This document shows positions 21,935-49,900 of a DNA stretch of 58,931 bases, piece by piece. The notes below the pieces were generated by a model. It was not told where the DNA came from. It did no database searches and saw only the letters and a list, made by a program, of their open reading frames with translations. The DNA is from a virus (taxonomy: Duplodnaviria > Caudoviricetes): positions 1-58,931 of the IMG/VR virus record IMGVR_UViG_3300042466_000346. One strand, given 5' to 3'. Made by a program: the position numbers and the translations under genes. Positions within the stretch are counted from its first letter, which is position 1; each line of letters opens with the position of its first letter.

Positions 21935-23758
21935 ATGAATCGCTTAAAGAAATCTTACTCAACCTGCTTAGAATGTGGTGGCAAAACAAGAATGAAGTCC
22001 GGAGGTAACTGGATTCAATCTGCCATTAAAAAGCCAGGTTCATTTACAGCTCAAGCTAAAGGTGCAGGTATGAGTGTTCCTGCGTTCCGTGATAAAGTAC
22101 TTGCTAACAAAGGAGACTTCTCCTCTACTACTGTAAAGAGAGCTAACCTCGCTAATACTCTTTCTAAGATGCGTAAGGGAGAAATGGGAATGATGACTAG
22201 GTCATCTCCTGTATCTACTAAGACTACCAAGAACTTTGCAATAAAAAGCAATAAAGGCCAGGCAAAGGTAGCACCTAAGATGTCTACTATAAGATCAAAG
22301 GATAGATACGGTGAAGACGGCATGGAGATGGAAATGGGAAGCACCAACCCTACTCAAATTAATTTGATGGACTCTAATACTATGCGTAGGAAAGAGATGC
22401 TAGGTGAGAGAGAGGCACAGTTGCAGGAGAAGAAGAACGGAGTTCCTGAGAATCAGATGGCACCTTTGTCTATGATGCGTGGTGGCAGACTCTATGCTCA
22501 GTTAGGTATGTTGAATGGCAAAGCTATTCAAGGACCTAAGCCAGCACCAGTTGCAGCCGCTCCTGCTAAACCAGCAGTTAAAGCTATGTCTAATGAAGAG
22601 GGCATGGACGAGGTTCCAAGAATCGAAGCAATCGATCCAAAGTTAACTCAAGCTAAAGCTATGTTGAAAGAAGACAACAAAGCTCTTGAAATGGCTAAGG
22701 TGAGAGATTACCAGATGATGCTTAATAAAAAGTACGGTGCAGGATTAGCTACTGACGGTGCATGGGGACCAAAGACACAGGCTGCTTATGAAAAGTACAT
22801 GCTGAAGCCTGCTGCTACTGTTGCTAAGTCTAGTGGTGATATGAGACCATCAAGAGCTGATCTGCCAGGTAACTTCAAGATGAATTTTAACACGCCTGTT
22901 GCTAAAGGTACTATGGGTCCTTCTAGAGCTGACATGCCTGGTAATTTCAGAATGAACTTTAATACTCCTGCAGCCCCAACTGCTACTGCTTCATCTTCTT
23001 ATAAAGGCACTAGTCAACCTTTGTGGCAAACTGCTAAAGAAAGACAAAGTTTTATTCCTGGTAAGGCTGGAGATATGGTAGTTAATCCTAACTATTCTTT
23101 TCTAAATAAACCTGCCAATAAAACTAATGCAACTAAAGCTGGAACTAAATCTACAACTGGTGGCAAAGCTCCTATACAAATCCCAGGCAGTCCTGAAAAA
23201 AAAAAAACAGCCGTGGTAGATAATCGTCAGTTACCTCTGACAGGAGTATTGGTTGATAGGGGTACAAATGAAACTTTTGTTTTTGGTAAGGATAACAACT
23301 TTCAATTCCCTGTCTTGACTGGTCAAAACCGCAACATGTATGCAGATGCTAATACCTTCACTGTTGATCAATTAGAAAAAGATAAATCAGGTAGAGTTAC
23401 TCCTCGAGGTTATTATATATTTGACCAAAACAATGTAACTGCTTCTGATAAAAAGTCTTACAATAATAATATCCGACACCTAGAGCCTATTACTGCTTTT
23501 GGTACTCCGGAACCTCAAGCTACTAATATTGCTGTACATCAGACTTATGATCCTGCTCGTAGAGCACCGTTCTATGATAAGTCGGGGGATCAAAGAGGCA
23601 AGTCTTATGGTTGCGTTAATGGACGTTGTGGTGATGTAGCTACAATGTTTAATCAAGTAGCAGATAGAGATACTGTGATGGTTATCGATTCTCGTAGACC
23701 TGAAGACCAACAGTTCCTTAAACAAGCACAAAAAAGAGTTGCAAAAAAGCAAAAATAA
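21935..23758 (+). CDS. Modular putative cargo protein: basic N-terminal module, peptidoglycan-binding domain, C-terminal L,D-transpeptidase (YkuD-like) domain
   Basis: YQMMLN...DGAWGPKTQAA; VLVDR...FPVLTG...TPRGYY...AVH-x21-SYGCVN. Confidence 0.7.
   Translation: MNRLKKSYSTCLECGGKTRMKSGGNWIQSAIKKPGSFTAQAKGAGMSVPAFRDKVLANKGDFSSTTVKRANLANTLSKMRKGEMGMMTRSSPVSTKTTKNFAIKSNKGQAKVAPKMSTIRSKDRYGEDGMEMEMGSTNPTQINLMDSNTMRRKEMLGEREAQLQEKKNGVPENQMAPLSMMRGGRLYAQLGMLNGKAIQGPKPAPVAAAPAKPAVKAMSNEEGMDEVPRIEAIDPKLTQAKAMLKEDNKALEMAKVRDYQMMLNKKYGAGLATDGAWGPKTQAAYEKYMLKPAATVAKSSGDMRPSRADLPGNFKMNFNTPVAKGTMGPSRADMPGNFRMNFNTPAAPTATASSSYKGTSQPLWQTAKERQSFIPGKAGDMVVNPNYSFLNKPANKTNATKAGTKSTTGGKAPIQIPGSPEKKKTAVVDNRQLPLTGVLVDRGTNETFVFGKDNNFQFPVLTGQNRNMYADANTFTVDQLEKDKSGRVTPRGYYIFDQNNVTASDKKSYNNNIRHLEPITAFGTPEPQATNIAVHQTYDPARRAPFYDKSGDQRGKSYGCVNGRCGDVATMFNQVADRDTVMVIDSRRPEDQQFLKQAQKRVAKKQK
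22841..22975 (+). repeat. 72-bp (24-aa) tandem duplication
   Basis: MRPSRADLPGNFKMNFNTP / MGPSRADMPGNFRMNFNTP with starts at 22841 and 22913. Confidence 0.85.
23196..23207 (+). repeat. A12 homopolymer in CDS
   Basis: GAA AAA AAA AAA ACA, just before the L,D-transpeptidase-like domain. Confidence 0.9.
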
Positions 23759-23761
23759 TTT

Positions 23762-25981
23762 ATGTCAGTAAATAGTTTTCTTGAGAAGTTAAAACAGCGA
23801 GTATCTCCTACACCTGTAGATGAGACAGGGATGTGGTATCAAAATGATGATGTCATTGTTCCGTCTAATAAGATTACTATGAAAGGTCCTAATGGTGAGG
23901 ACGATTACTTTGAAAAGCCTATACTCGGTGTGGGTATGCAGTCAGGTAAGCAAGTAATGATGCAACCTGGTGAGGAGTATGAGTTTCCTGAAGATAAGGA
24001 AGTCTACGAAACTCAAATGCAGTTAGGTGGAAGAATTGATAACGTCTCCCCTAGAGGTGATGTAGATTTTTCTGTAGGCAACAAGAATAAACTTTCAGGT
24101 CAAGTAGTGGGGTCAATCAATGCTCCTTCATTACAGATGAATTCCTTGACTCCGAGATTAGCTTACTCTAATAAAGGATTTAACGCTAACGTATCTCCAG
24201 GTGGTTTTGGTGCCGGCTATGAGGGTGAGAAGGGTTATATAGACTACAATCAATCTACTGCAGGAAAGGATACTTACAGAACAGCTAGTGCTGGTTACAA
24301 CACAGAGAGAGTTAACTTAAATGCCAATGCTACTATGCGTAACAATATGCTAGAGAATGCAGGCATTGAGGGTTCATACCAAGTCACTCCTAACTTATCT
24401 TTATCTGGTAACTACAACATCAACAAAGGTGAGCAAGGAACTGATAAGAATTACTTTGCAGGATTTAGATACACTAAGTCTTTTGAGGATGGCGGTGAGG
24501 TTGAGGATGAAAATGACGATGACAAAGAGATGGTAGATGGGATTGCTAGCATCTTAACAAGAGTTAAAGATAAGAACAACAGAAAGCAAATTGCGAATGA
24601 AATGATACTTGATTTTAAAAAAGAAGGTGTTAAGTATAACCTCAAAGATTTTAAAAAATCTGCTAAAATAATGCAGATGGGGGGAATGTCTATTCCTGGA
24701 GTTAACGGTACTGTAGTTGCTTCTAGTAATACTTCTAGACTAAAGAAAGCATACATGCAACAAGCGGGCTATGTTAAGTACGTACCGCCTAGTCAAAGAC
24801 CTTTAACGTTTCGTAGTGATAACCCAAGTACTTCAGATAATACAAGGGTTAATACGGTTATGTCCAATAAACCTATTACACCTGTAGCAATCCCTAGTAA
24901 GCCTGTAACTAGGTCAAAGTCTAATTCTAGTCTTAATAATAGACTAGCAGCTATGTCTGAAGTAGAGGATAGGATTTATGCAGATAATACTGCTGTGTAT
25001 TCTATTCCCCCTATGAACCTAACAAAGAAGGCAAACTATGATGTTGAGGAAGACTACAGACAATCTGTAGAGTCTGGATTAGCAGGAAGACTATTGAACG
25101 TGCTTCCTACCCCATTGGCTTCCTACATTAGAGGATTAGCAGATGAGGACAATACAACTGCTGATTTTACGGAGAGTCAGAAACAAGCTGCAGCTTACGC
25201 AATAGCTAAAGCAGAAGCAAGAAAATCAAAGGCAGGTGATGAGGGCTACACAGGAAGTTTTGACTATGCAGATTATCCTGCAGGGTATAGAGACGAGCAA
25301 GGGGTTGCACATAACCCTGCACTATCTAACTTATTTAACTTACCTTCTTTGGATGGAAAAACCGGTAAACGTTTAGATAACGTAACTAAGTATTGGGGAT
25401 CAGCAATGATGCAGCCTACACTAGGTAAGGCCAATTTTAAGAAGTATAATGATGAAGAGTACCTAATACATGATAGGTATAACTTTGATTCCTATAATCC
25501 AAATAGTAAGTCTATAGTTGATAGGGCAGAGAAATTTGCAAATGAGTGGGGCGTAGAAACTGAAACTAATTTAAGAGTTCCTGTGAAGTACGTAGAGGAT
25601 GCTAGAAAACAAATAGCTGAGGAAGACGCTCAACCAAAGGTAAAGCAACCTGAGGAACAAGCAAAACCTACAGTTAAACCTACTGTAGAGAAAGCACCTG
25701 CAAACGTATCAAAACCCGTTGTAGAGAAGTCTAAACTTCAACAGAGTTATGAGCAAGCTAAGCCTTCTTTTAAAAAGACTTTAACCATTACTACGACTCA
25801 ACCAAAACAAACAACTCCTGCTAAACAAGCACCTTCACGTAATCAAATAAATAGTGAAGAGAGTAAAGTGCAGAACTACCAAAAGATGTTGAATAGTAAA
25901 TACAATGCAGGTCTAGAAGCTGATGGAGCTTGGGGTCCTAAAACTCAAGCAGCTTACGAAAAATATATACTCAAGAAATGA
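23762..25981 (+). CDS. Modular putative cargo protein with beta-barrel-like module and C-terminal peptidoglycan-binding domain
   Basis: Modules separated by MQLGG, FEDGG, MQMGG and MQQAG; C-terminal YQKMLN...DGAWGPKTQAA. Confidence 0.6.
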   Translation: MSVNSFLEKLKQRVSPTPVDETGMWYQNDDVIVPSNKITMKGPNGEDDYFEKPILGVGMQSGKQVMMQPGEEYEFPEDKEVYETQMQLGGRIDNVSPRGDVDFSVGNKNKLSGQVVGSINAPSLQMNSLTPRLAYSNKGFNANVSPGGFGAGYEGEKGYIDYNQSTAGKDTYRTASAGYNTERVNLNANATMRNNMLENAGIEGSYQVTPNLSLSGNYNINKGEQGTDKNYFAGFRYTKSFEDGGEVEDENDDDKEMVDGIASILTRVKDKNNRKQIANEMILDFKKEGVKYNLKDFKKSAKIMQMGGMSIPGVNGTVVASSNTSRLKKAYMQQAGYVKYVPPSQRPLTFRSDNPSTSDNTRVNTVMSNKPITPVAIPSKPVTRSKSNSSLNNRLAAMSEVEDRIYADNTAVYSIPPMNLTKKANYDVEEDYRQSVESGLAGRLLNVLPTPLASYIRGLADEDNTTADFTESQKQAAAYAIAKAEARKSKAGDEGYTGSFDYADYPAGYRDEQGVAHNPALSNLFNLPSLDGKTGKRLDNVTKYWGSAMMQPTLGKANFKKYNDEEYLIHDRYNFDSYNPNSKSIVDRAEKFANEWGVETETNLRVPVKYVEDARKQIAEEDAQPKVKQPEEQAKPTVKPTVEKAPANVSKPVVEKSKLQQSYEQAKPSFKKTLTITTTQPKQTTPAKQAPSRNQINSEESKVQNYQKMLNSKYNAGLEADGAWGPKTQAAYEKYILKK

Positions 25982-26436
25982 AACAGATGATCAAACGTAA
26001 AGATGGTTCTTATTCCCAGAGAGGTCTTTGGGATAACATCCGTGCTAATAAAGGTAGTGGCAAAAAGCCTACACCTGAAATGCTTAAGCAAGAGAAGAAG
26101 ATTAAATCTATGGGCAGCGGAGGAAGTCTTTACCAGTCTTACATGGCTAAGGGAGGAACTATCCGTCATACTACTAAAGGTCCCGGTGCTAATTACCGCC
26201 CTACTAAATCAGGTGCAGGTATGACAGCTAAGGGTGTGGCAGCTTATAGAAGAGCTAACCCCGGATCTAAATTACAAACCGCAGTTACTGGCAAGGTAAA
26301 GCCTGGCAGTAAAGCAGCTGGTCGTAGAAAATCTTATTGCGCTCGTTCACTAGGACAGTTAAAAAGATCTTCTCAAGCTACTAAAAATGATCCCAACTCA
26401 AGAATACGTCAAGCACGTAGACGTTGGAAATGCTAA
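25978..26436 (+). CDS. Basic phage protein (DUF6321-like C-terminal module)
   Basis: GMTAKGVAAYRRANPGSKL...RRKSYCARS...RRRWKC; family recognised from memory. Confidence 0.6.
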   Translation: MKQMIKRKDGSYSQRGLWDNIRANKGSGKKPTPEMLKQEKKIKSMGSGGSLYQSYMAKGGTIRHTTKGPGANYRPTKSGAGMTAKGVAAYRRANPGSKLQTAVTGKVKPGSKAAGRRKSYCARSLGQLKRSSQATKNDPNSRIRQARRRWKC

Positions 26437-26459
26437 TCACTAAACTAAACTAACTATAA

Positions 26460-26615
26460 ATGGCAACCGCAGCAAAATCAAAATCAAGCTCCATCTCTCT
26501 TAAGTTTAAAGTTAAACCTAAGGTTCGTAGAAAGGGAGTCGTAGCAAAGACAAGGGCTTCTAAACTCAAGTCGAGTAAAAATTATCTAAAGAAAAAAGTT
26601 GGGCAAGGAAAGTAA
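26460..26615 (+). CDS. 51-aa highly basic protein (absent from the ORF track)
   Basis: MATAAKSKSSSISLKFKVKPKVRRKGVVAKTRASKLKSSKNYLKKKVGQGK; A-rich leader; TAATG coupling to the next gene. Confidence 0.75.
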   Translation: MATAAKSKSSSISLKFKVKPKVRRKGVVAKTRASKLKSSKNYLKKKVGQGK

Positions 26616-27334
26616 TGATTGTATACAAAGTTACTAACTCAGTAAATGGCAAGGTATATATTGGGTATACCACTAAAACACTTGATCAAAGGATTAAGGC
26701 TCATTTAAGGAAAGCAAACTGTCTTACTCAGAAACACCATACTCAAGCTTTTAAGTTGGCTTTAAGGAAGTATGGTAAGGAGTGTTTTCTTTGGGAAGAG
26801 TTAGTAACTTGTAGTACAAAAGAAGAAGCTTGTGAAAAAGAAAAACACTTCATAGCAGAGTATAACTGCGTTGTTCCTTTAGGTTATAATATGACTTTGG
26901 GAGGAGAAGGGGGAATATTTTCAGAAGATGTCAAAATTAAGATCTCTAATTCTGTAAAAGATTATCATAAAAACAATCCTGAAATCTGGCTTAATAGTAC
27001 CCTAGCTAATGCTAGTACAGAACAGAGGAGTGAGTGGGGCAAAAAAGCAGCAAATACTAAAATTCAAAATGGGTTTAAGTACAAAACAGGATTCACAAGA
27101 CCACAGGAGTCTAGAGAAAAGATGAGTAAAACTAGACGAAAGAAATACTCCTGTACTTGGTACAATTTTAAAACAAAAACATTAGTGGAAGCATCTTCAA
27201 CAGATATGAGTGAATTTACAGGATTATCCGTAGGCACATTCAATCATTTAAAACATGAAAGACTTCGTATTACTAAGTGTGGTTGGGTTTATGTTCCTGC
27301 TGAGTCTAATTACATTGCACTAAATAGGGGGTAA
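26615..27334 (+). mobile_element. Free-standing GIY-YIG homing endonuclease
   Basis: IVYKVTNSVNGKVYIGYT, R..H, EKHFI, GYNMTLGGEG; NUMOD-like C-terminal segments (ESREKMSK). Confidence 0.88.
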
Positions 27335-27355
27335 GCAATTACCCCTTGCTTTTTT
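27328..27355 (+). terminator. Intrinsic terminator overlapping the endonuclease stop codon
   Basis: GGGGTAA-GCAA-TTACCCC then TTGCTTTTTT. Confidence 0.7.
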
Positions 27356-27375
27356 ATGTTAATCTTGTATATTTG
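27346..27375 (+). promoter_or_regulatory. Bacteroidota sigma-A promoter
   Basis: TTG 27346-48, 19-nt spacer, TATATTTG 27368-75. Confidence 0.8.
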
Positions 27376-27439
27376 TATAATAAGTATAACTTATTGAGTT
27401 ATTAATATTTAATATTATAACTTCTAAAATTAAAAACTA

Positions 27440-30400
27440 ATGCTTAGACATTCTCTCTATAAGAAATTTGGTAAGAAATTCTATAAGGAAGGAGGCAGCG
27501 ATGAGAATCCTTTTGGGATTCCTTCAATCAAACCGCCTGCACCTTTAGGGAATTACAGTACTAAAGAGCAACCTGAAGGCACCATTACATCTGGTGATGC
27601 TTCATATGCACCGGGAACATTCAATACTGACAAGGCTAGCAGTATGTTTACTCCCGATGCTTCACCATTTTTCAGTAACATTAATCCTGAAAATATCTAC
27701 GATGTAGACCAGAGCACTCCAGAGATGGAGCAAGGTCCCTTGACTAAGTCAGAGACTGAAAAGCGTGGTCTTATGTCGGATTATAAAATCCCCGAACCTT
27801 CTTTCAAGGATAAGTTAAAGAGTAACATAAAAAGCATTGGCAATGACATTAAAGAGAATTGGCAGGACTATGCTACTGTTGGATTAACAGGAGCACTAGG
27901 TGCTGCTAATTATATGGATGCACAGCGTAAAGAAACTGAACTAAATCAATCAATTCAATCTAGACAATCAAAACCTCTCTACGACTATAACTACATGTAT
28001 GGTCGTACTACGAGTGGAGGTACCGAGTACCAACCTATTGTTATGGCACAAAAAGGAGCAAAAATTACAAACCGTTACAATACTCCTGAAGGAGTAAATA
28101 ATAACGTAGAAATTGAAGACGGAGAGTTTTTGATTCTACCTGACGGTACTAGCGAAGTGGCTAAAGGACCTTCGCACTCACAGAGTTACAAAGCAGATGG
28201 CCAGTCTATGAGTGGCATCAATACCATCTTACCGAATAACACAAGAGTATTCTCTAATCATATGAAACCTTCTGACGGGGCTAAACTTAATCCCGAAGAA
28301 CAGTTTGCTAAGATAGGTGCATACTTACAAGCTGGTGGTGACTTTAGTCAACTAGACATGACTACTATGTTCCGTGCTAAAAAAGGTAAAGATAGTAACA
28401 AGACCTTTGCTGAGATTGCTAAGCGTTATGATAATACTGAGTATGACGAAGTTTTGAAGAATCCTTTTGCTAAGGAGGTAGACAAACAGACTGCTCGTAT
28501 TATGAAGGAGCGTAATGATAAAGTACTTGACCAATTGTTCAGAGATCAGCAGTTTCTTAACGGCAACTCTAATGGAGAACAGAAGCAAATGGCTAAAGGC
28601 GGTATTAATAATCCTGGCTTTGAAGCACTCCCTGGTTATGTTCAAGCAAAGATTACTGCTAACATGGCAGAAGGTGGCGATGTTGGTAGTGCACCTGTCA
28701 ATACATTTATGTCTCCAGGTGTAGGTAATGATCCTAAATTTGAACAATACTATAATCAACAACGTCAAAGTTTCACTCAGGCAGGTGTTAAAGAAGCACC
28801 CTCTCGTAATGATATCTACTCTTATTACCAATCTGCTAATCCTCAGTCAGCAGTAGATCAAACAGGACGTATGTTGTTTAGTAACCCTAAAGGAACTATT
28901 TCTTCAGGCACTACCTTTAGTCAAGCTGTAGATCCTAACACAGGTATGGCATTAAACCAAGGTACTAACTTAGAAAAATCTGCTTTTGATCAACAAGCAA
29001 AAAGATTTGCTTATGGTGGTAAACTATACATGCAAGATGGAGCTAAGAAATATAAACTTCCTGAAGGAACTGTTCTTAAGAAAGAAGGCGACAAGACAAT
29101 TAAGCCTGGTGATTATGTTCAACTAGCAGACGGTACAGTAAAGAAGTTGACTAAGATAGATACCAAGCGTGTACGTGAAGCTTCTAAATCTTCTGTAGCT
29201 TCTAACTACGATGAGGGTAAGACCTTTATTAAGTCTTGGGCAAGTCAATCCCCTGAGAACCAACAAAAACTAGAACTAGCTAATGCTGCATTCCAGCGTG
29301 GTATTAACGAAGGAAGTATCAAGGTAATCAAGGAAGGACCTAAGAAAGGTCAGTACGAGATTACAGGTAGCTTTAAACCTGCCAACATGAAAGAACGTTT
29401 GGCTATGTCTGACGTAATCAACAAGTCGGGTAAAGGTTTTGGTACGGATCAGTTTCAGATTGGATTACAGACAGGAACTGAAGGATACTCTCAAAGAGAT
29501 CCTAAGACTGGTACCATTAGAGGTACTGGTTCGTTTGTAGCTGGTTTTAGTCCTGCAGAATACGAACAGCGTTTTACTTACGCAAGAGCCAAGGCAGAAG
29601 GTATGTCAGAGGATGAAGCTATTGAGTTGGCAGAGTCTCAAGACCCTAAGGTTCGTGCAGAAAACCGTAAGACTTTCTTGAAGGATATCGGAATGAATAG
29701 TGAAGGAGTACCTGATGAAGCTTTGCTATCTGATGACTTCTACAAGAATAGGTACTCTGATATAACCAAGAACATTGAAAAGAGTTTTGGAGAAGGCGAC
29801 TTCCGTCCTTCTATGGGTAATGACTTGATGTCTGGTTGGGAGCATTACGATGCTATCAACTATCAAGGTAATCCAATGTACGAGGATGTACCTGAAGAAC
29901 CTGAAAATCCAGGAGGTATTCCTGACCCTAACTTCCCAGAAAGAGGTAAGTATACTAGAATGCCTTATGACACCATGCAGGCTATTCCCGGAGCTTATGG
30001 ATTAGCCCAAGCACAAGATATATTCCCTTATGCAATTCCTGAGGTTCAGTCTCCTTATATAAAGCCACAGACTTTAAACATTCAAAGTGAGTTGCAAGAC
30101 ATCGACAACATGCAGGCTTCTGCTTTACGTGCAGGTGCTGATCCAAACATGACCTATGCAATGTCCTTGGATGCTAAGAACAAAGCATTCCAAACCAAGC
30201 AGAACTATGATGCTGAAGGTCGTTGGAAAGCAGATGCTACTAACTTTGATGCTGAGTTGAAGACTAATGCTATGAACGCTGAACTCTTTAACAAGACCTA
30301 CAATGATATGTATGCTACTGCTAAGTCTAATCAATCTGAAGCTAAGTTAGCAGCAGTTACTGGTTTGGTAGGTAGTCGTGCTCAATACAATGCAGACGAA

Positions 30401-30847
30401 AACATGAAGGAGTTCTACCATAACAACTTCATGCCTTCTTACAATTGGGACCCTAAGACAAAGACTTGGTCTGTTGTTAATCCTGGTGATATAGTAGACT
30501 ACGCAAACAAAAAGCAAAGTACAGGTACTACAGGTACTACTGGAAAAACAACCACTACTGGAACCACAGGGACTACCAGCACTACTGCCAGCACTACTAC
30601 TACCGGTTCAGCGTCTGCTCAACCTACTACAGCTAAAGGCACACCTATGGTTAGAGGTATTGCAGAACCTTCTGCACCCGGTACGTTCCCCTTTATGTCT
30701 ACCCCTTCATTTGACGAGGTTGATGGGATGGCTACTGATCCAACACAGAATTTAGGTACTAAGTTCCAAAAGAAAAACGGAGGTCTTCAACATGCCTACT
30801 TAAAAGCAGGCGGAAAGATTTACCATTTCACATACCCTAAAAGTTAA
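27440..30847 (+). CDS. Virion cargo/ejection protein (crAss cargo protein 1-like)
   Basis: NVEIEDGE...GPSH...RVFSN and KTFAEIAK motifs, Gly/Ala hydrophobic segment, many xxGG motifs, Thr-rich tail. Confidence 0.65.
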   Translation: MLRHSLYKKFGKKFYKEGGSDENPFGIPSIKPPAPLGNYSTKEQPEGTITSGDASYAPGTFNTDKASSMFTPDASPFFSNINPENIYDVDQSTPEMEQGPLTKSETEKRGLMSDYKIPEPSFKDKLKSNIKSIGNDIKENWQDYATVGLTGALGAANYMDAQRKETELNQSIQSRQSKPLYDYNYMYGRTTSGGTEYQPIVMAQKGAKITNRYNTPEGVNNNVEIEDGEFLILPDGTSEVAKGPSHSQSYKADGQSMSGINTILPNNTRVFSNHMKPSDGAKLNPEEQFAKIGAYLQAGGDFSQLDMTTMFRAKKGKDSNKTFAEIAKRYDNTEYDEVLKNPFAKEVDKQTARIMKERNDKVLDQLFRDQQFLNGNSNGEQKQMAKGGINNPGFEALPGYVQAKITANMAEGGDVGSAPVNTFMSPGVGNDPKFEQYYNQQRQSFTQAGVKEAPSRNDIYSYYQSANPQSAVDQTGRMLFSNPKGTISSGTTFSQAVDPNTGMALNQGTNLEKSAFDQQAKRFAYGGKLYMQDGAKKYKLPEGTVLKKEGDKTIKPGDYVQLADGTVKKLTKIDTKRVREASKSSVASNYDEGKTFIKSWASQSPENQQKLELANAAFQRGINEGSIKVIKEGPKKGQYEITGSFKPANMKERLAMSDVINKSGKGFGTDQFQIGLQTGTEGYSQRDPKTGTIRGTGSFVAGFSPAEYEQRFTYARAKAEGMSEDEAIELAESQDPKVRAENRKTFLKDIGMNSEGVPDEALLSDDFYKNRYSDITKNIEKSFGEGDFRPSMGNDLMSGWEHYDAINYQGNPMYEDVPEEPENPGGIPDPNFPERGKYTRMPYDTMQAIPGAYGLAQAQDIFPYAIPEVQSPYIKPQTLNIQSELQDIDNMQASALRAGADPNMTYAMSLDAKNKAFQTKQNYDAEGRWKADATNFDAELKTNAMNAELFNKTYNDMYATAKSNQSEAKLAAVTGLVGSRAQYNADENMKEFYHNNFMPSYNWDPKTKTWSVVNPGDIVDYANKKQSTGTTGTTGKTTTTGTTGTTSTTASTTTTGSASAQPTTAKGTPMVRGIAEPSAPGTFPFMSTPSFDEVDGMATDPTQNLGTKFQKKNGGLQHAYLKAGGKIYHFTYPKS
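30519..30606 (+). repeat. Thr/Gly low-complexity tract
   Basis: TGTTGTTGKTTTTGTTGTTSTTASTTTTG. Confidence 0.7.
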
Positions 30848-30854
30848 CTAACTC

Positions 30855-32750
30855 ATGATTTCGCATAATTCCAAAACCTTCAAGTACCCAGACTATATCT
30901 CTCCTCTACCATCTGATGAGTACATCAAGTATGCAGAGAAGAAACAGTCAATGTATGATGAAGGCTTAGCCCAAGTTAAACAGACTGTAGATAACTATGC
31001 AAGTCTAAGACAGAATATCTTAACTGATGTAGAGAAAGAGTACTACGACAAAGCAATGACCAACCTTGTACAAGGTATCAATAAAAATGCTGGTGTAGAC
31101 TTCTCATTCAAAGGAAACGTAAATGCTGTTCTTGGCATGGGTAAGACACTCGAAAGAGATAGTAATATCCTAACTGCCATAGGTAACGGTAAAGAAGTTC
31201 AGCGTAGACAAGAAGCCTTAGCTAAAGTAGATGGTTCTAAACGATCTGCTGCTAATGATCACCTCTACATGAAGGACGTTCAAGAATACTTGAAGTCAAA
31301 CAAGCTAGGTCAGAAACTTTCATACGGTAAAACCTATGAAGAGTACTATGACATCAGTAAGGATTGGAAAGACTTCTGGGGTACCATCAAAGGTTCTAAC
31401 CAAACAGAAGAGATAAACATGCAGTCTAAGTTTGGACCTGCTTACATGGAAAAGGTAACTAAGGAAGGATTTACAAAGTCAGAGATTGCTCAAAAGTTTG
31501 AAGCTTATCTTGCTAACAATCCTAAAGCACTTCGTCAATTACAGATTGACGTAGGGTATAACCTAGACAATCTTGGTAAGGAGAATGCTTACACAGGTTA
31601 CGTACAGAACATGCGTCAGACAGCTGATGCAGCTTCATCTACAGTTAACAATTTGGATAGAGCTATTGGTGAGTTGGAACAATCGTATACAAAGACCAAG
31701 TCACCTATCATCAAAGAACAAATAGACCAGTACAAGTCTATGCGTGACTATCAGAATCAGGTAAGGGTTATGGCTATTCAGAAATCAGAAACTCCTTTTG
31801 AAGAGTTTGATGTTAATGATTACGCAGGTATCTATAAGTCTGAGTTTATCAGCAACATGTCTAACATGTATGCAGGTCAGAAAGTATCTAGAGACTTAAT
31901 TAAAAATGAGTACTGGGTACAACAGAAAGAGGATAACCGTATCTTGATGCGCCACAATCTTTCTATGCAGAGAGATAAGGCTAAGTTCCAGATGGAAGTA
32001 CAAGACCGTTACATCACTACCAAGAAAGACGTTGAGTTGGATGTTCCTCAGATGACCGCTGTTATTAAGAACGTGCCTCATGCTATTAATCAGCTTGACA
32101 AGGTAATTGGTAAGGCAGTAAATCAAATGGGTATTCCTAGAAACTCAGGAGCTGCTATGAATATTGAGAGAGCACAGAAGGCCCTTAGACAAGCACAAGG
32201 ATTAACTGGTGTTGCTCAGTTGAGTAAAATCAAGGAAGCATTTAATTACCTTGGTCCATCTAAAATAAATGCAAGACTAAAACAAGATATTGCTAGTATC
32301 TTTGGTCTTACTAACGTGAACACTGCGGCTGAGTATGATGACTTTGTAACACAGGTTAGTCAACAATTGAATACAACAGCTTCAATGCTTTCTGCTGAAG
32401 TAGCTAAAGGTAAGAGACCTGGCGTAGAAGGAGACATGGCTCGTTCAAGACAAATCAGTTACAACGATGCATTTGACTACTCTGTTGGTAGCATTGAGAA
32501 TATGAACTTCATTCTTAATGGGGATGCCTTGACAGGAAGACTTGCTATTGCTTCTCCTGAATCTACTGGCTACAGTAGTGAAGAAACTATACAAGTGCCT
32601 AAGTTAGATGCACAAGGAAGACCTGTCATGAGTGAGAAGGGAAAACCTATAATGGTAGACAAGGTAATCAAGACTACCACCAAGGCAAGCAACAAGGTAA
32701 ACAGACCTGAAAAATACAAAGTGAGTGCTAGTACAGAAAGTGAAGATTAA
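30855..32750 (+). CDS. Virion cargo/ejection protein
   Basis: YISPLP...KQSMYD N-terminus; helical; between cargo 1 and the RNAP gene as in crAss phages. Confidence 0.6.
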   Translation: MISHNSKTFKYPDYISPLPSDEYIKYAEKKQSMYDEGLAQVKQTVDNYASLRQNILTDVEKEYYDKAMTNLVQGINKNAGVDFSFKGNVNAVLGMGKTLERDSNILTAIGNGKEVQRRQEALAKVDGSKRSAANDHLYMKDVQEYLKSNKLGQKLSYGKTYEEYYDISKDWKDFWGTIKGSNQTEEINMQSKFGPAYMEKVTKEGFTKSEIAQKFEAYLANNPKALRQLQIDVGYNLDNLGKENAYTGYVQNMRQTADAASSTVNNLDRAIGELEQSYTKTKSPIIKEQIDQYKSMRDYQNQVRVMAIQKSETPFEEFDVNDYAGIYKSEFISNMSNMYAGQKVSRDLIKNEYWVQQKEDNRILMRHNLSMQRDKAKFQMEVQDRYITTKKDVELDVPQMTAVIKNVPHAINQLDKVIGKAVNQMGIPRNSGAAMNIERAQKALRQAQGLTGVAQLSKIKEAFNYLGPSKINARLKQDIASIFGLTNVNTAAEYDDFVTQVSQQLNTTASMLSAEVAKGKRPGVEGDMARSRQISYNDAFDYSVGSIENMNFILNGDALTGRLAIASPESTGYSSEETIQVPKLDAQGRPVMSEKGKPIMVDKVIKTTTKASNKVNRPEKYKVSASTESED

Positions 32751-38700: not shown

Positions 38701-41700
38701 TAAAGGTAAGATCACATACAAAGCTAAAAACAAAGCAGGTAAGTACCAGCACATTACAGGTAAACCAGAGGTTCAAGCAAAACGAGTAGCAGAAGCTTTT
38801 ACTAACATCCGCTACAACGTAAATAAGGATAACCTAGACTTAAATGGTCCATTCTCTTTGATCAAGATGCTGGGAAACCAGTTGGCTGTAATACCTTTTA
38901 ACACTTACGAAGGTATGCTTAAGAGCGATGAGTTTGGTGCCAAAGTTAGTACAACCGTAAACCAAACCTTTGCTTTAGATAGTGAGTACACTATCCATAC
39001 AGAAGACACACTTCTTCCAGAACAAGCAGGTGTTGAGGTAACTGTGCATCCAACTGCAGATACTGTCTCTACTCAACCTACAGATGCTGTAGCTGATATA
39101 GAAAGAAGAAGACAAGAAGAGTTAGCAGAATTTGATGTTTTTGTAAAACGAGAAGATGGTAGACGACAAAAACCTCTTAGTAAAGATTTTATAGAAGATA
39201 CAATTTCTAAAGTAAATGCTAAGTATGATGCCGAACTAGCTGCTTTAAGTGACGTCGACGATTTGGATGATGACATCGACTACGACTCTATCTTTGGTGA
39301 TATTGCACCTGATGATGTACTAGAGCGTTCTTTACTTTTACAGAACACTATCTCTGAGCAAGAGAACAATGCTGCTCAAGTTTGGGTAGAGAACAGCCCT
39401 ATCTTCAAAGGCACTAGATTTATCTTTGACAAGACCATAGCACACCCCACTGCTTATGCAGTTTGGTCTAAGGCTGGTGTGTTCTTGTTTGAAGGAGCAA
39501 ACTATGCAGAAGGTTATCACGAAGCATGGCATGAATTCTCTCAGTACTACTTGACTAAAGAACAGAAAGATTCTTTGTATGCACAGGCTAGAAAAATCTA
39601 CGGAGACTTAAGTCTAGTAGAACTTGAAGAAAAACTTGCAGAAGACTTCAGACAATTTGCTTTATCTAACGGTAAAGTATTCCCTGAAGGAATCAAAGCC
39701 AACAAAGAAGCTAAGAGTGTGTTCCAGAAAATCTGGGACTTCATTACCAACTTTGTTTCTGACAAGAAGACAGTTGATTTCTACTTTGGTCAGTTGTACA
39801 AAGGTCAAATCAGTAGTTACACTCGTAACGAAGACCAAGCCTACTTCAAGGAACTTAACAGTAGCAAACTTGTAGTTAACCTTGCTGACGGAACTAAGAA
39901 AGCCTTTAGCTTTAAAGAGGGTGATGAGATTCTAAATCAGTTTGACTCTCTCTTCGTTAGCATGGCTAACCGTTTGGTTTCTCAACTTAATGGTTCTGTG
40001 GTTAACGTACTTGACAATAAAGCTTACATAGTTCGTACTTATAAAGCAGTAGATGGTGCTTTACAATTAGCCCAGGCTAAATACAATCAATTGGTTGCAG
40101 AAAATCCAACACCACTACGAGTTGCTCGTAAAGAGTACCTTGATATGTTGGTAGGTAATCGTCAGACATTGTTCTTGTTCCACAAGACAGCTTCTACTTT
40201 GTTCTCAGATAAAGTTAAGCAAGCACTTAACGAAGAGGTGGTAGATGCTACGTTGATGGATGACATGCCTGCATTTGGTCAGTTTGAGAGTGCAGTTAAC
40301 GAGCAGTCTCAAAAACTTAAGGCAGCCCCATTGATTATCACCGCTATCAAGAGTTTGCCTCAATATAAAAACAACCTCCCTGTAAAGGACAAGGTGTTTG
40401 GGGTGAACAAGATTGGTGACTTTGATACTAACTGGAACATCTTACAGAGAACTTTATCTGGTACTAACAGTTACGCAGATATGTATAGAAGGATTCAAGA
40501 CTTGACTACTCGTTATGGTCAGTTCCGACAACTCCTTTCTTACCTGCCTAAACCCTCTGAGACTGATGTAAAGCAGAGTACGCTAAACTTTAAGAACGCT
40601 TTCTTCAATACCTTCTCTATGCCATACATAGATGGGTATACAAATGAAATCACAACCACTACTGAAAAGGATGGTCAAACTAAAGTAACCCACGCTATCT
40701 ACAAAGCACAGTCACTAGACTCTAAAAACTTGCGTCGTGCCTGGGATAACGATTTTTATGTTACTGATGGATTCTATAAGAGTATTGATGGAGAGACTGG
40801 TAGTTACTATCTGAACGCAGATAAATACTTTGAGGATTACCCAACTGTACCGGATGAGCCTATCTTCACCTCAGAAGAGGATAAACTCAACTACCAAGAG
40901 TCTCTGTATGCTATGCTTACTCCACTAGGATTTAACTTTAGTGAGTTTGGTAAGGAGGCTTTGTTTACTATGCCCGTTAAGGATTTCCGTAGACAAGTAG
41001 AACGTATCCATAAAAAGATCATTTCTCTAAGTGAAACACAGCGATACATCTTTACTCCTTTAACTAGTATTTCTTCTGAGCACATTAACTCTGAGGACGA
41101 AGTTGTTTTCTCTGAGCAAACTGCTTTACTTGAACTTATTCAGTTCGAGGTACAAGCTAACGTAGAGTATGTGAACGACATGCAATACAATGCTTTGGGT
41201 AAGAAAGTATGGTCTGTAAATCCACATACTTACATGACAAGAGTTCTTTCTATTATGAATGACTCTACCCTGTATCCTACCTTGGACGATGTATACAGAG
41301 AGTTGCCTCAGTTAGATCCTGCTAAGAACCCTGCTGCTTCTTTCTCTGCTGTAATTAAGTACATGTTTACACCAGCCGGTAACAGAAGACTGAATCCTGA
41401 TAACTCTACTAGAACTCTTGATATTGCTAACTTGTTGGGTGTTAAAGAAGGTTTTGATGGAGAGAAGACCATTGATGTTGTAACCCCTGTAAAACATTAC
41501 ACAGATGTTATGGGCTTACTAGCTTCTGGTGTTGAAGAGGTTAACCGTTTCTCAGGTAAGAGCACTACACGTGGTTTGGTACTTGATGACAGATTCCGCT
41601 ATGAGTTAGGGATGAAGTCTGCTTTTACCTACAACAATAGTTTGGTGATTCCCGATGCAGTATTTGCGAATAGTATTTTGCCAATACTCTTTGGTGAGAT

Positions 41701-46912: not shown

Positions 46913-49900
46913 ATGATTTGTCCTAATTTAAATGATCCAGAGGTAAAAGCTAAGTTTGATCAACTGCTTAGTGTAGTACCTGAATATGCTTATTACCTCT
47001 GGGATAAGTATGAGGGAGAAGTTCCTGCTAAATACTACAACCTAAGTACAGTAGCCCCTGGACTAGGAACATCCGTTACTACTGTTGAGAATGCTATTAA
47101 AAGTAACCTACCAAAAGAAATTAGTAATGCTGTTAGTGTAGTGGACCTTGTTCCCTTAGATATACTTGGTAGAGAGGATCTATTCCTTTCTATGAAGGAG
47201 ATCCTGAACGAGAATGGAATTACAGATGAACTTTTAATTAACTGGGCTGGTAAGAACAAAGCAGTAATTGGAAATATAAAAAAGTTTAGGTCTACAGAAC
47301 AACTTGAGAAAGTAGTTGATACTATATATAACAACAAAGCTAAGGTAGAGAACCACGTTGAACTTAAGTCAAATGAGTTAGCTTTAAATAGTTTTAAAAA
47401 GTGGGTAGAAGCCTTAGAGAAGTACCCAGTACCTTTTAGAGACTTAATGTTAACTCACGCTATTAAGTACTTGAATCCACAAAGAAGGTCTAAGTATGTT
47501 TTACAGTTAAGCAAGGTAGCACTTCAGAAAGCGTATGGCATAGTTGTAAACAAACCTCACGAAGCTAATAGGATAGGTAAACTATATGATGAAGAGGTTC
47601 TAGCTACTTTATCAGATTCTGTAGATCATGAACCTTCTGCTAGTGGTAAGGGATATTGGGTGCATGTGCCTAGAACAGCTAAAACTGATGAAAAATTATC
47701 AGATAGAGAACAATACAAAACAAATGTAGAAACTCTTAGAAAACTGTCTCCCTCTACTTGGTGTACTTCTGGTTCTATGACAGAATATTACGTACAAAAC
47801 TATGATAATTACTTACTGATTGTAGATGGTATTACTGTTGCAGGGATTGAGGTAGGAATAAATAACACAAGCTCTAGACAATTACATGGTACTAAAGTAT
47901 TTTATCTTTTTAAATCTGATGGTTATTTAAAAGATGGGTATGCTATTTATTCTGATAGAAAAGAAGAACTTGATGATAAAAATTTATTAACTTCTGAAAC
48001 AACTAAAAACCCAAGTGGAGTAGAATTTACTTATATAAACCTAAAGGAAGAAGATAAAGAAAAAAGACCAGTAAAAGAAGTTACATCAAGAGCTAACAAT
48101 GGGGTAGCACCAATAGATCATTTAGATGATATAATAGCATTTTTTGAAAAGCATAACTTAGACTTAAACAATAATTCTGTTAAAAGAGCTCAACAATTAA
48201 AGTCTGAAGGAAAAGTAGATTCTGAGTATAAAGAAGAATTTCAAGGTTATATAGATCCATTTGACTACGAAGGACAGCCAGATTTTTATGATCCAGATTA
48301 TGATTTTGATGTAGACCAGTACGAAGAATTAAGAGCAGAGGAGAGAAATAGAAGGCAATTAATTGCAGCACAATTGATTTCTGTAGAAGAAACTCTAGAC
48401 AATCTTGAATTACTAGCATTACAAAACGAGAACAATGTTTTTCAGCAAATTCCCCAAGAACTTAGAGATGACGAAACTGTAGCAAGAAGGGCAGTTCTTT
48501 TAGACCCCCATAACATAAGACACATAAGTACTAACGTTCCTTTTTACAGAGAACTTGCAACTGAGGTTGTTACTAATACTCCTTATATCTGGAGTTACCT
48601 ACCAGAAGAAGGTAGAAATATACCTGGATTAGAGGAAATATACCGACAGTATAATCTAGAAGATGACCTTCCTTTCTCTAAAACTAGTTCAAAACAAATA
48701 CAAGGGTACTATGATCCTAAGAATGATAAAGTCGTAGTAGTAGCATCTAATGTATCTCCAGAAGAAGCCCCTAAGGTTGCTATTCACGAAGTAGCCCACA
48801 GAGGTATGCTTAGGATGGCTAAAGAGTTGAAAGGAACGAAGGAACTTTATCAAGTATTGTTTAACTCTGAGAAGGAGTTAATGAAAAAACTTCCTGAGTT
48901 ACTTAAGAGAACTGGACATACAAACATAGAAAGTTTGTTACAAGACTATGGATTTAGTACAGAGTCAGAAGAAGGTAAAGCAAAACTCCTAATGGAGTTG
49001 GCAGCAAGATGGGCAGAGACTTTAGTAGATAAACCTAAACCTACTTGGTGGAAACAATTCTTGTCAGGTATTCAACAGTGGGTAAAAAACTTTACAGGTA
49101 AGACCTTAAATGAGGCTGAAGTAAACGAGTTGGTAGGTGGATTTGTTAGATATGGTACTGCACCTGTATCTAACGTCATGTATAGTAAGGCTACTCTAGA
49201 TGACATTAAGAATCATTACTTAAGACTAGAGGTAAATTTAAAGCTTGCACAGGACCTACTGAAAAACCCTGAGTACGTTAGTCTAGATAGCTACAGTAAG
49301 AAGATTGCCTACATATCTAACAAAGTATGGCAGTCTGAAACTCAGAAGATTAAAGACAGGCCTTCTGTGACCTTGATTGGTAATAGAATCTACCACACTA
49401 GTACCGAGTACGTAAAGCCACACCAGATTCTTGGCTATGCTGATACTACCGCTTTAAAGATTAACAGTAAATACATCATCAACGGAGGCAAGAAGATCGC
49501 TTGGGCAAGGTACGATGACTCTGGAGTATACGTAGAGATTGACCCTCGATACAACTTTGCTGCTGATATAGTTGACCTAGTAGAAACCGTAGAAGAGGAA
49601 GAGATACGTGCTGAGATTGAAATGATGGGTTTGCAGGAAGCATTAGATGCTGAGAAGCATGCATTGATGGAGAAGTTAATCCAGTCAAATGAATTGTTAA
49701 TTGACGGAGAAGTATTGCCGCTAAGTAATGTTATGTTCCAAAAGACCATGGAGTTATCTAATGTTCTTAAGAGAGGTAACGTACGTAAGTTTGGGCAAAT
49801 CTTTGACAAGTTGGTAGCTAAGTTCCCAGGTGTAACCTGGGCATGGGATACTAGTATTGATGGTGCTGCTCGTGTAGATCTAGCAACCGGACAGATACTT

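Follow-up and report, generated by a model that had tools for sequence, protein, structure and literature searches.

What is the role of a short motif, a hydrophobic residue followed by two variable residues and a pair of glycines (Phi-x-x-G-G), that recurs through four neighbouring open reading frames (ORFs) of an aquatic crAss-like podovirus? The question is raised by IMG/VR record IMGVR_UViG_3300042466_000346, a stretch of 58,931 bases (analysed whole and hereafter called the window) that is estimated to be 51% complete and has all of its genes on the plus strand. The four ORFs encode proteins of 607, 739, 152 and 1135 amino acids (aa), sizes that agree with a preliminary description of the sequence, and are named here p607, p739, p152 and p1135; the coordinates of all features are collected in Table 1. 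The data show that these are small internal (cargo or ejection) proteins of the podovirus, their presence in the virion being predicted from gene position, and that Phi-x-x-G-G is a conserved junction element between the exchangeable modules of mosaic cargo proteins. As to how the motif works, we tentatively propose a helix cap combined with a Gly-Gly hinge as the most likely mechanism.

All 15 instances listed in the preliminary description exist, 14 of them at the same positions in our count and the last, MQQAG, within p739; one instance absent from that list, LECGG at 21968, is probably part of the CxxC N-terminus of p607. With expectations taken from shuffles of each ORF's own residues, [MFYL]xxGG is found 14 times in the four ORFs against 3.08 (3, 3, 2 and 6 against 0.67, 0.64, 0.26 and 1.51 in p607, p739, p152 and p1135, respectively; Poisson 4.6e-6) and MxxGG 8 times against 0.73 (two per ORF, with 0.24, 0.10, 0.09 and 0.30 expected; Poisson 1.0e-6); the other 26 ORFs of the window (~16,600 aa) contain a single MxxGG, within the GIY-YIG gene. 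The bias holds against a Gly-matched background, on which the first claim of enrichment had been made to depend: M, F, Y, L or W stands at position -3 of GG in 14 of 19 cases in the four ORFs and in 15 of 65 elsewhere (Fisher 9.0e-5), and Met alone in 8 of 19 and 1 of 65 (Fisher 1.4e-5). It is also specific for the register, since the four ORFs hold 14 cases of h-x-x-GG (h, hydrophobic), 4 of h-x-x-x-GG and only 1 of h-x-GG, the register of adenain and ubiquitin sites. The widening of the motif to G[GA] that had been suggested is not enriched (h-x-x-G followed by a residue other than G, 13.7 versus 12.0 per 1000 aa, ratio 1.1); the degenerate MQDGA nevertheless falls on an indel boundary with respect to the related contig L003.

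The Gly-Gly codons are varied (GGT 11, GGA 9, GGC 7 and GGG 1) and selection therefore acts on the protein; on account of the same variation we rejected a signal at the level of the DNA, for instance a hotspot of recombination or a Shine-Dalgarno sequence (GGAGG) inside the genes, and internal start codons were rejected as the cause of the Met preference because orthologous sites alternate between M, L and F. That the motif is a by-product of chance or of Gly- and Met-rich low-complexity linkers is extremely improbable, because, although Gly (7.2-12.5%) and Met (3.0-5.6%) are commoner in the four ORFs than in most of the rest, such an origin is already refuted by the composition-preserving shuffles and by positions kept in homologs at 40-50% identity while codons vary, and the enrichment is confined to one register.

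Related viral contigs at 82-89%, 48% and 40% identity share the block of four ORFs, and in them the motif is enriched in the same genes, with the muzzle, DUF5856 and C2-position genes being without it. For the sets of homologs, loci and DUF6321 proteins below, expected counts are products of residue frequencies and not shuffles. The 120 p1135 homologs listed contain 374 motifs against 116 expected, and 81 p739-like proteins contain 244 against 62. Among 514 distinct ORFs from 87 loci, the 125 with at least two motifs, a group selected on the motif itself, hold 394 against 85 expected, and the remaining 389 show no enrichment (97 against 117). Nor, measured against shuffles, are the giant proteins of the window enriched (3 against 2.65 in the 4703-aa protein and 2 against 1.62 in the 2810-aa protein). 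The cultured Cellulophaga phage phi4:1 carries 6 motifs against 1.08 expected in gp040, a protein that fuses a p739-type N-domain to a C1-type core and has FQAGG at the junction corresponding to MQLGG of p739; its 895 residues hold the motifs at positions 81, 324, 333, 515, 548 and 888, and gp040 and its neighbour gp041 are annotated as virion proteins from tandem mass spectrometry. The motif is not a property of all Crassvirales, as neither gp45 and gp46 of crAss001 (3 against 2.2 in gp45) nor gp30 and gp31 of Flavobacterium phage FpV4 (1 against 1.0 in gp30) are enriched, nor is it a general trait of DUF6321 proteins, 120 longer examples of which, mostly K-rich, marine and with other linkers, hold 38 against 58.7.

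The sites found in these sets define a signature wider than the five residues. The core is Phi-x-x-G-G, with Phi being M > F > Y and sometimes L or W, and the fuller form is K-Phi-[QEAK]-x-G-G-[not P/A/G]-[V/I/L/M/W]. At position -3 of 598 GG sites, M occurs 215 times (10.3-fold), F 69, Y 46 and L 26 times (0.7-fold). In 675 distinct contexts the residue after Phi is Q (4.8-fold), E (3.0-fold), A or K and hardly ever beta-branched or aromatic; the first residue past GG is almost never Pro (0.02-fold of background) or Ala (0.09-fold), with M, E, I, W and K favoured, and the second is V, I, L, M or W. Between close relatives Phi alternates among M, L and F and the x residues vary, and GG is constant.

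That the four ORFs are strings of modules, and that the motif lies at the module boundaries, had been proposed from the sequence; both proposals are supported, the second by AlphaFold models and comparative breakpoints. The models of p1135 and p739 are of modest quality (mean pLDDT, the predicted local distance difference test, 57, with 44% of residues below 50). Eight of the nine modelled motifs lie in segments with pLDDT below 50 and the ninth in a block with a mean of 58; in p1135 the motifs at residues 15, 384, 409, 523 and 1121 belong to the former and the one at 296 to the latter. None of the nine is buried within a confident domain; burial would have told against the original proposal. 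Helices 285-297, 399-412 and 1117-1122 of p1135 stop at or inside a motif, helix 514-521 stops shortly ahead of one, and helix 294-305 of p739 ends at MQMGG. Apart from these, residues 122-174 of the p1135 model form a long helix, those at ~225-275 a beta domain and 902-997 a coiled coil at the C-terminus, with helical domains besides, and a Foldseek search with this model against the PDB gave nothing at E <= 0.001 (best E 1.8). In p739 the low-confidence seams that hold MQLGG, FEDGG and MQMGG separate its parts, among them a meander of 11 antiparallel strands (residues 100-237, pLDDT 68-80) whose best Foldseek matches are VDAC and bacterial porins (E 2e-3 to 4e-2). This meander (window 24059-24472) ends in ...GFRYTKSF, shortly ahead of FEDGG, and may represent a module of the ejectosome that forms a pore in the outer membrane. 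In the ESM Atlas, residues 400-625 of p739 match only unnamed viral clusters, a Colicin_M match at 0.90 being no more than a lead.

An endolysin-family stretch and a domain of the YkuD L,D-transpeptidase fold (E 8e-7) are present in p607, where a direct protein repeat, MRPSRADLPGNFKMNFNTP and MGPSRADMPGNFRMNFNTP, lies at 22880-23050 (~aa 316-372) between the binding stretch and the YkuD domain. The peptidoglycan-binding-like stretch of p607 recurs at the C-terminus of p739, where phrog_2649 matches residues 641-735. The homologs of p1135 among those listed are free of Pfam matches except for one precomputed PF20606 on P0196. A Thr/Gly low-complexity tract of p1135, TGTTGTTGKTTTTGTTGTTSTT... 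at 30530-30620 (~aa 1031-1060), differs in length among close relatives and may serve for glycosylation or as a spacer. Of the short elements in the p1135 family, the best conserved is a module of 20 aa, INNPGFEALPGYVQAKITAN (28604-28663), which fits exactly between MAKGG and MAEGG, as had been remarked at the outset.

Comparison of relatives shows modules exchanged at the motif. A single protein of the related contig L004 begins with, in that order, the N-module of p152, MAEGG, the INNPGF module of p1135 and MQEGG. A three-helix module, MVDGIASIL, is internal in p739 of the window (from FEDGG to MQMGG) and C-terminal in L007, where it follows MENGG. In L003, residues 414-535 of p1135 are missing, the gap reaching exactly from after MAEGG to after MQDGA. 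When 332 proteins were cut at the motif and the pieces of up to 90 aa clustered, the MSIPGVNG module was found C-terminal 41 times, N-terminal 27 and internal 6 times, the MVDGIASIL module C-terminal 27 and internal 39 times, and the GLWDNI module N-terminal 30 and internal 4 times. In an all-against-all BLASTP comparison of 131 motif-rich proteins, similarity stops exactly on the last G of a motif at 103 of 1036 local ends of high-scoring segment pairs (HSPs); 17.2% of HSP ends lie within +-3 residues of the last G, compared with 6.2% for random positions, and 16.2% of HSP starts lie within +-6 residues of a motif, compared with 8.9%, the HSP-end counts including related sequences so that events are non-independent and the counts inflated. 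Further mosaic homologs carry SLT+LysM and other inserts.

The same modules occur beyond the crAss-like phages. Genes gp44-gp52 of Pelagibacter phage HTVC027P form a row of small basic genes built from them, and gp52, a stand-alone DUF6321 protein, is 92% identical to the p152 module over 91 aa. Such stand-alone versions (HTVC027P gp52 and P0270) begin directly after the GG position. From the GLWDNI searches 80 loci were kept, 49 of which have crAss cargo-block markers no more than 6 kb away and 31 of which lack them; in the latter, 13 module-bearing ORFs hold 39 motifs against 9.3 expected. As to the modules themselves, the highly basic DUF6321 module of p152 (26158-26433, aa 61-152) matches 327 phage records from pelagiphages, cyanomyoviruses and cyanopodoviruses. 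The GLWDNI module (MIKRKDGSYSQRGLWDNIRANKGSGKKPT..., 25978-26109, aa 1-44 of p152) is matched in IMG/VR at least 531 times, with 79-100% identity, and takes up an N-terminal, internal or C-terminal place in proteins whose lengths run from 66 to 1618 aa. In two p152 homologs, P0001 and P0002, a small module of the NPSLWSRAK...YPSAYANGW type is split by an insertion of ~250 aa that starts with Cys and looks like an intein/Hint domain.

The position of the four ORFs identifies them as cargo genes. Pfam places the large terminase subunit, portal, major capsid protein and crAss ring proteins 3/4, 2 and 1 on the 5' side of the block, and a 631-aa ORF followed by giant proteins of 4703 and 2810 aa on its 3' side. 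[quoted passage not shown] Since the four ORFs lie between crAss_MUZ and the giants, as the crAss001 cargo does between the muzzle and the RNA-polymerase-related giant genes, they stand at the cargo position, and their domain content (YkuD, peptidoglycan-binding-like stretches and DUF6321) fits ejection proteins. Sequence similarity to the crAss001 cargo is not significant by BLASTP (p1135 against gp45, E 0.24; 631-aa ORF against gp46, E 0.21) or by hhalign of an 88-sequence p1135-family profile against gp45 (probability 0.8%, E 0.075). Searches of 50,697 phage records, by megablast with the region and by tblastn with p1135, returned no match.

Two neighbouring genes deserve mention. A DUF5856 gene, also annotated as 'starvation-inducible regulator' (Dps-like), follows the muzzle gene; tblastn matched it in 38 of the 80 module-bearing loci, and all relatives seen have the post-muzzle copy. 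It places a ferritin/Dps-like gene within the virion cargo block. Between p152 and p1135, at 26615-27334, lies a GIY-YIG homing endonuclease gene (Pfam E 5e-11; phrog_314 E 6e-33) that is present in the window only, the close relatives L002 and L003 having a gap of ~290 nucleotides there; it looks like a recent mobile insertion into the cargo block.

Table 1. Genes, motif sites and candidate enzyme sites of the window (positions in the 58,931-base stretch).
Feature	Position	Strand	Description
Muzzle (MUZ) protein, 2081 aa	15302..21547	+	Pfam crAss_MUZ PF25731, E 2.6e-39; upstream edge of cargo block
DUF5856/Dps-like gene, 127 aa	21550..21933	+	motif-free; kept directly 3' of MUZ in relatives
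p607	21935..23758	+	CxxC leader, small basic module aa 25-81 (phrog_20603), peptidoglycan-binding-like stretch, YkuD aa 438-583
MKSGG (p607)	21992..22006	+	closes 24-aa leader, phrog_20603 module next; kept in L002, L003, L007
MMRGG (p607)	22472..22486	+	junction
p739	23762..25981	+	N-helix, conserved beta N-domain aa 34-79, porin-like beta meander 100-237, 3-helix module 253-305, disordered stretch, alpha/beta domain 420-625, peptidoglycan-binding-like C-terminus 698-736
MQLGG (p739)	24017..24031	+	junction of N-domain and beta meander; G89 nearly invariant, 58 homologs
FEDGG (p739)	24482..24496	+	after last beta strand, before MVDGIASIL 3-helix module
MQMGG (p739)	24671..24685	+	closes helix 294-305; MSIPGVNG module next
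p152	25978..26436	+	GLWDNI basic module aa 1-44, two motifs, DUF6321 module aa 61-152
MGSGG (p152)	26110..26124	+	after GLWDNI module
MAKGG (p152)	26143..26157	+	residue after its GG corresponds to start of HTVC027P gp52
p1135	27440..30847	+	C1-like by position; at least 120 homologs
YKEGG (p1135)	27482..27496	+	after conserved N-terminal MLRHSLYKKFGKK helix; motif at this column in 32/117 homologs
LQAGG (p1135)	28325..28339	+	closes helix 285-297; 43/120 homologs
MAKGG (p1135)	28589..28603	+	before INNPGF module; 55/119 homologs, rest xAKNGAG/S
INNPGF module (p1135)	28604..28663	+	family's most conserved short element
MAEGG (p1135)	28664..28678	+	113/119 homologs; M409, G412, G413 nearly invariant; closes helix 399-412
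FAYGG (p1135)	29006..29020	+	junction
MQDGA (p1135)	29030..29044	+	degenerate variant; edge of L003 indel
LKAGG (p1135)	30800..30814	+	before 10-aa C-terminal tail; 47/118 homologs
631-aa ORF	30855..32750	+	cargo C2 position; motif-free; similarity to crAss001 gp46 not significant
HEAWH (HExxH), 4703-aa giant	39518..39532	+	candidate zincin site
HEVAH, 2810-aa giant	48785..48799	+	HExxH kept in 72/84 aligned homologs
HEFSH, 2810-aa giant	49937..49951	+	HExxH kept in 35/36 aligned homologs

How a junction of this kind might work is best considered from the helices that end at it. In the mechanism that we favour, the motif would close the last helix of a module as a Schellman-type C-cap, with Phi at C3 and the glycines at Ccap and C'; the residue after GG would need a free NH, and the ban on Pro at that place would follow from this register. 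The Gly-Gly pair would then supply a flexible hinge, so that each module could fold, unfold and refold independently of the others during storage in the capsid and tail and during threading through portal and muzzle, and modules with a junction at both ends could recombine into new genes with their function kept; cleavage would be unnecessary. By the C-cap rules of Aurora and Rose, C3 is reportedly hydrophobic, C' is Gly, and C'' has to donate an NH (hence no Pro) and tends to be hydrophobic. The helix-forming residues at x1 (Q, E, A and K), the depletion of Pro and the enrichment of M, I and W after GG support the cap, and with G412 of p1135 as Ccap, M409 falls at C3 and G413 at C', so that helix 399-412 and MAEGG (409-413) fit the Schellman register. 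For three other helices it fits only roughly, and in all of these segments the models are of low confidence.

Several observations weigh against the cap. The Schellman assignment itself follows the general rules of Aurora and Rose rather than the output of a tool. A plain hydrophobic cap should favour Leu, yet Leu at -3 is depleted where Met is strongly enriched, the six residues most often seen at this position in the 598 GG sites include neither I nor V, and [IV]xxGG occurs once in the four ORFs compared with 7 times in the rest of the window; a preference of M, F and Y over L, I and V suggests that another protein recognises the motif, by way of a pocket that discriminates between side chains. 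The exclusion of Ala after GG (0.09-fold) is left unexplained by a cap, and tandem motifs 4-8 residues apart (MGSGG-SLYQSY-MAKGG and FQKGG-QLNK-YEDGG) are odd for one. The placement of eight of nine motifs in low-pLDDT segments reaches only about p = 0.008 in a rough binomial estimate on a 44% background, with Gly content as a confounder. That the relatives lack known protease families, as described below, is compatible with an unrecognised or host protease. Taken together, the M/F/Y preference, the Ala exclusion and the tandem sites suggest that some protein reads the motif, which keeps both processing and docking alive as readings.

Processing is possible, if somewhat unlikely: an endopeptidase would read Phi-x-x-G-G and cut after GG or before Phi, the cargo genes would be true polyproteins, and leaders, short basic tails and modules of 20-150 aa would be freed in the capsid or after ejection. 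The enzyme could be one of the HExxH (zincin-like) domains of the co-packaged giants, some other, unrecognised protease of the phage, or an enzyme of the host. Seven positions make up the signature, with M, F and Y but not L, I or V as Phi and no Pro, Ala or Gly after GG; its sites are accessible and disordered in the models, lie in leader-like N-terminal places (24 aa in p607 and 19 aa in p1135) and before short basic tails, occur in tandem, and mark the points right after which the same modules begin when they are separate genes, all of which would suit a protease. A precedent exists in adenain, which cuts basic adenovirus core proteins at (M/I/L)xGG. In the register of the site the analogy fails, however, because the hydrophobic residue of adenain, ubiquitin-type and double-glycine sites is at P4, where here it is at P5. 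The motif is also present in small pelagiphage proteins and in non-crAss loci, which makes a single phage-specific enzyme unlikely. For phages, Iyer et al. 2017 (PMC5512222) predict, in the text accessible to us, that zincin-like peptidases process polyvalent proteins and cite the processed DdrB of P1, and the prohead protease of phage SPN3US is described as cleaving proteins during head assembly, with an ejection-protein bolus (PMC10052503 and PMC5694885, in their accessible parts). The accessible portions of the crAss001 and N4 papers, on the other hand, report no processing of ejection proteins, and the N4 virion RNA polymerase is packaged unprocessed according to the corresponding text of Iyer et al. 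2017 (PMC5512222).

A search for the enzyme gave one candidate. Profiles of Peptidase_C5, C48 (clan CE), C39, Prok-JAB, S78 and ClpP matched in none of five related records that are 76-94% complete (three of them at least 90%); S77 (PF03420) was likewise without a match in the five, in a search that is uninformative since its control matched nowhere. The prohead protease profiles used were PF04586, PF03420 and PF00574, and the C39 control matched in 7 of 14 genomes. The giants carry three HExxH sites (Table 1), two of which are kept in most aligned homologs drawn from a library of 1.84 billion proteins; most homologs with these two conserved domains are themselves giants of 2000-6000 aa. HExxH also occurs twice in phi4:1 gp041, the neighbour of motif-rich gp040, and, of 197 motif-rich proteins, 4 contain it in cis where 0.3 would be expected. 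None of the three HExxH segments has a significant Pfam match, a phmmer search of the 2810-aa protein against PDB sequences gave nothing significant either, and neither did Pfam on ten short homologs, which counts against the processing reading. Complex prediction of p152 with residues 560-790 of the 2810-aa protein, the HEVAH domain, scored 0.00, which speaks neither for nor against binding. As they match no Pfam family, these regions may be unclassified zincin-like domains, and no candidate enzyme was found other than these conserved HExxH domains in the co-packaged giants.

In its broad form, in which the motif is the site of an unrecognised protease and the cargo genes of this lineage and of many aquatic phages are polyproteins, the idea is rather doubtful. 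If it were true, cleavage would release leaders, enzymes, the porin-like module and ultra-conserved basic peptides of 20-90 aa (GLWDNI, DUF6321, INNPGF and KKPGS), the same peptides that pelagiphages and cyanophages encode as separate genes; phages would then have an equivalent of the maturation of adenovirus core proteins, together with a portable 'cut here' code with which arrays of injected effectors are built.

Docking without cleavage is the less probable of the two, and on balance we consider it unlikely. The exposed motif would bind repeated sites of the virion, such as portal, tail barrel, muzzle, capsid interior or scaffold, or an assembly chaperone, and would load and order any payload that carries it. 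The side-chain-specific Phi, the accessible linkers, the up to 10 copies per protein and the highly variable payload modules behind conserved N-terminal parts are in favour. So is crAss001, where, in the accessible part of the paper, short helical segments of C1 bind the tail barrel (12 copies) and a 14-residue segment binds the muzzle (6 copies) (PMC10172136). The resolved gp45 segments given there, 214-245 and 425-552, fall between its motifs at 17, 260 and 559, but no cargo segment described there as resolved contains a motif. Moreover, crAss001 gp45/gp46 and FpV4 gp30/gp31 are unenriched despite the same virion plan, the motif is also present in small stand-alone pelagiphage proteins, and the giants are unenriched although their positional counterparts gp47/49/50 of crAss001 are packaged. 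The preliminary description had envisaged a repeated capsid-loading tag with swappable payloads; the swapping at seams is borne out by the relatives, whereas a general packaging tag is unlikely because the giants lack enrichment.

Adenain, to which other GG-specific viral and ubiquitin-like proteases are related, has sites of the form (M/I/L)-x-G-G|x in precursor core proteins, with Pro excluded after GG. The motif resembles them in that a hydrophobic residue and Gly-Gly stand at the seams of small basic DNA-associated internal virion proteins with Pro excluded, and differs from them in that the hydrophobic residue is one position farther away (P5) and is M/F/Y rather than M/I/L. The likeness to adenain drawn at first is not supported, given 14 cases of h-x-x-GG and 1 of h-x-GG in the four ORFs and no clan CE peptidase in the five relatives. 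Double-glycine leaders are 15-30 aa long, end in GG and have hydrophobic residues at -4, -7 and -12; the 24-aa and 19-aa leaders of p607 and p1135 end in GG as well, with the hydrophobic residue at -5, and most sites here are internal. T4 has capsid-targeting leaders and a prohead-protease site ending in Glu. Internal proteins of T4 and phiKZ-like phages, as far as the accessible sources describe the latter, are alike in being packaged with DNA, ejected and equipped with short N-terminal leaders and multiple sites per protein, and unlike in the Glu-ending site in place of GG and in a dedicated S77-type protease, none being found here in a search whose control was uninformative. With the Schellman C-cap the motif would share a hydrophobic C3, Gly at C', the absence of Pro and modelled helices that stop at the first G; M/F/Y over L/I/V, a second invariant Gly and the exclusion of Ala lie outside the general cap.

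Among the closest known systems are also the cargo proteins of crAss001 and the polyvalent proteins. In the accessible text on crAss001 (Bayfield et al. 2023, PMC10172136), C1 and C2 have the same gene position, from the muzzle to the RNA-polymerase-related giants; there as here the chain is for the most part disordered, only a few segments being ordered, and a long hydrophobic helix lies close to its N-terminus, and C1 extends from tail to capsid. Like p1135, gp45 has motifs after a basic leader (FDTGG at residue 17) and past its portal-bound domain (FAYGG at 559). Unlike the window with its four ORFs and C2-position gene, crAss001 has two cargo genes, with no significant sequence or profile similarity and no enrichment of the motif in gp45 (3 against 2.2). 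The text of the paper, Extended Data and supplements aside, mentions neither the motif nor proteolysis (PMC10172136). The four ORFs agree with the polyvalent proteins of Iyer, Burroughs, Anand, de Souza and Aravind 2017 (PMC5512222), as its accessible text describes them, in being virion-delivered mosaics of cell-wall, nucleic-acid-binding and unknown domains, with HExxH domains in the same or co-packaged giants and processing given as a prediction. Single chains here combine unrelated domains (YkuD, peptidoglycan-binding-like, DUF6321 and porin-like beta among the four ORFs), and the architecture is variable among relatives. They differ in that the paper defines domains and not junctions, 'linker' and 'glycine' occurring 0 times in the text accessible to us (PMC5512222), in that many modules here are only 20-60 aa long and highly basic, and in that HExxH here is without a Pfam family.

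Polyvalent and cargo proteins are known, and what is new here is a defined seam code. Literature searches, which missed supplements and many subscription papers, found no description of the motif or of crAss-type cargo processing, as the preliminary description had supposed, and a 2026 paper on N4, in its accessible part, calls the crassvirus ejection proteins unresolved. The motif bears on how crAss-type podoviruses store, order and eject megadaltons of protein. It is a practical means of parsing otherwise unannotatable proteins into modules, and it gives evidence of an exchange of payloads at defined junctions, from gene to gene and among phages whose hosts belong to different phyla. Whether the seams are cut or hinge is sharply testable in a cultured system, gp040 of Cellulophaga phage phi4:1. 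If they are cut, tailed phages would have a new maturation system, one for which no protease is recognised; if the seams hinge, they would provide a design rule for proteins that are unfolded and threaded through a tail.

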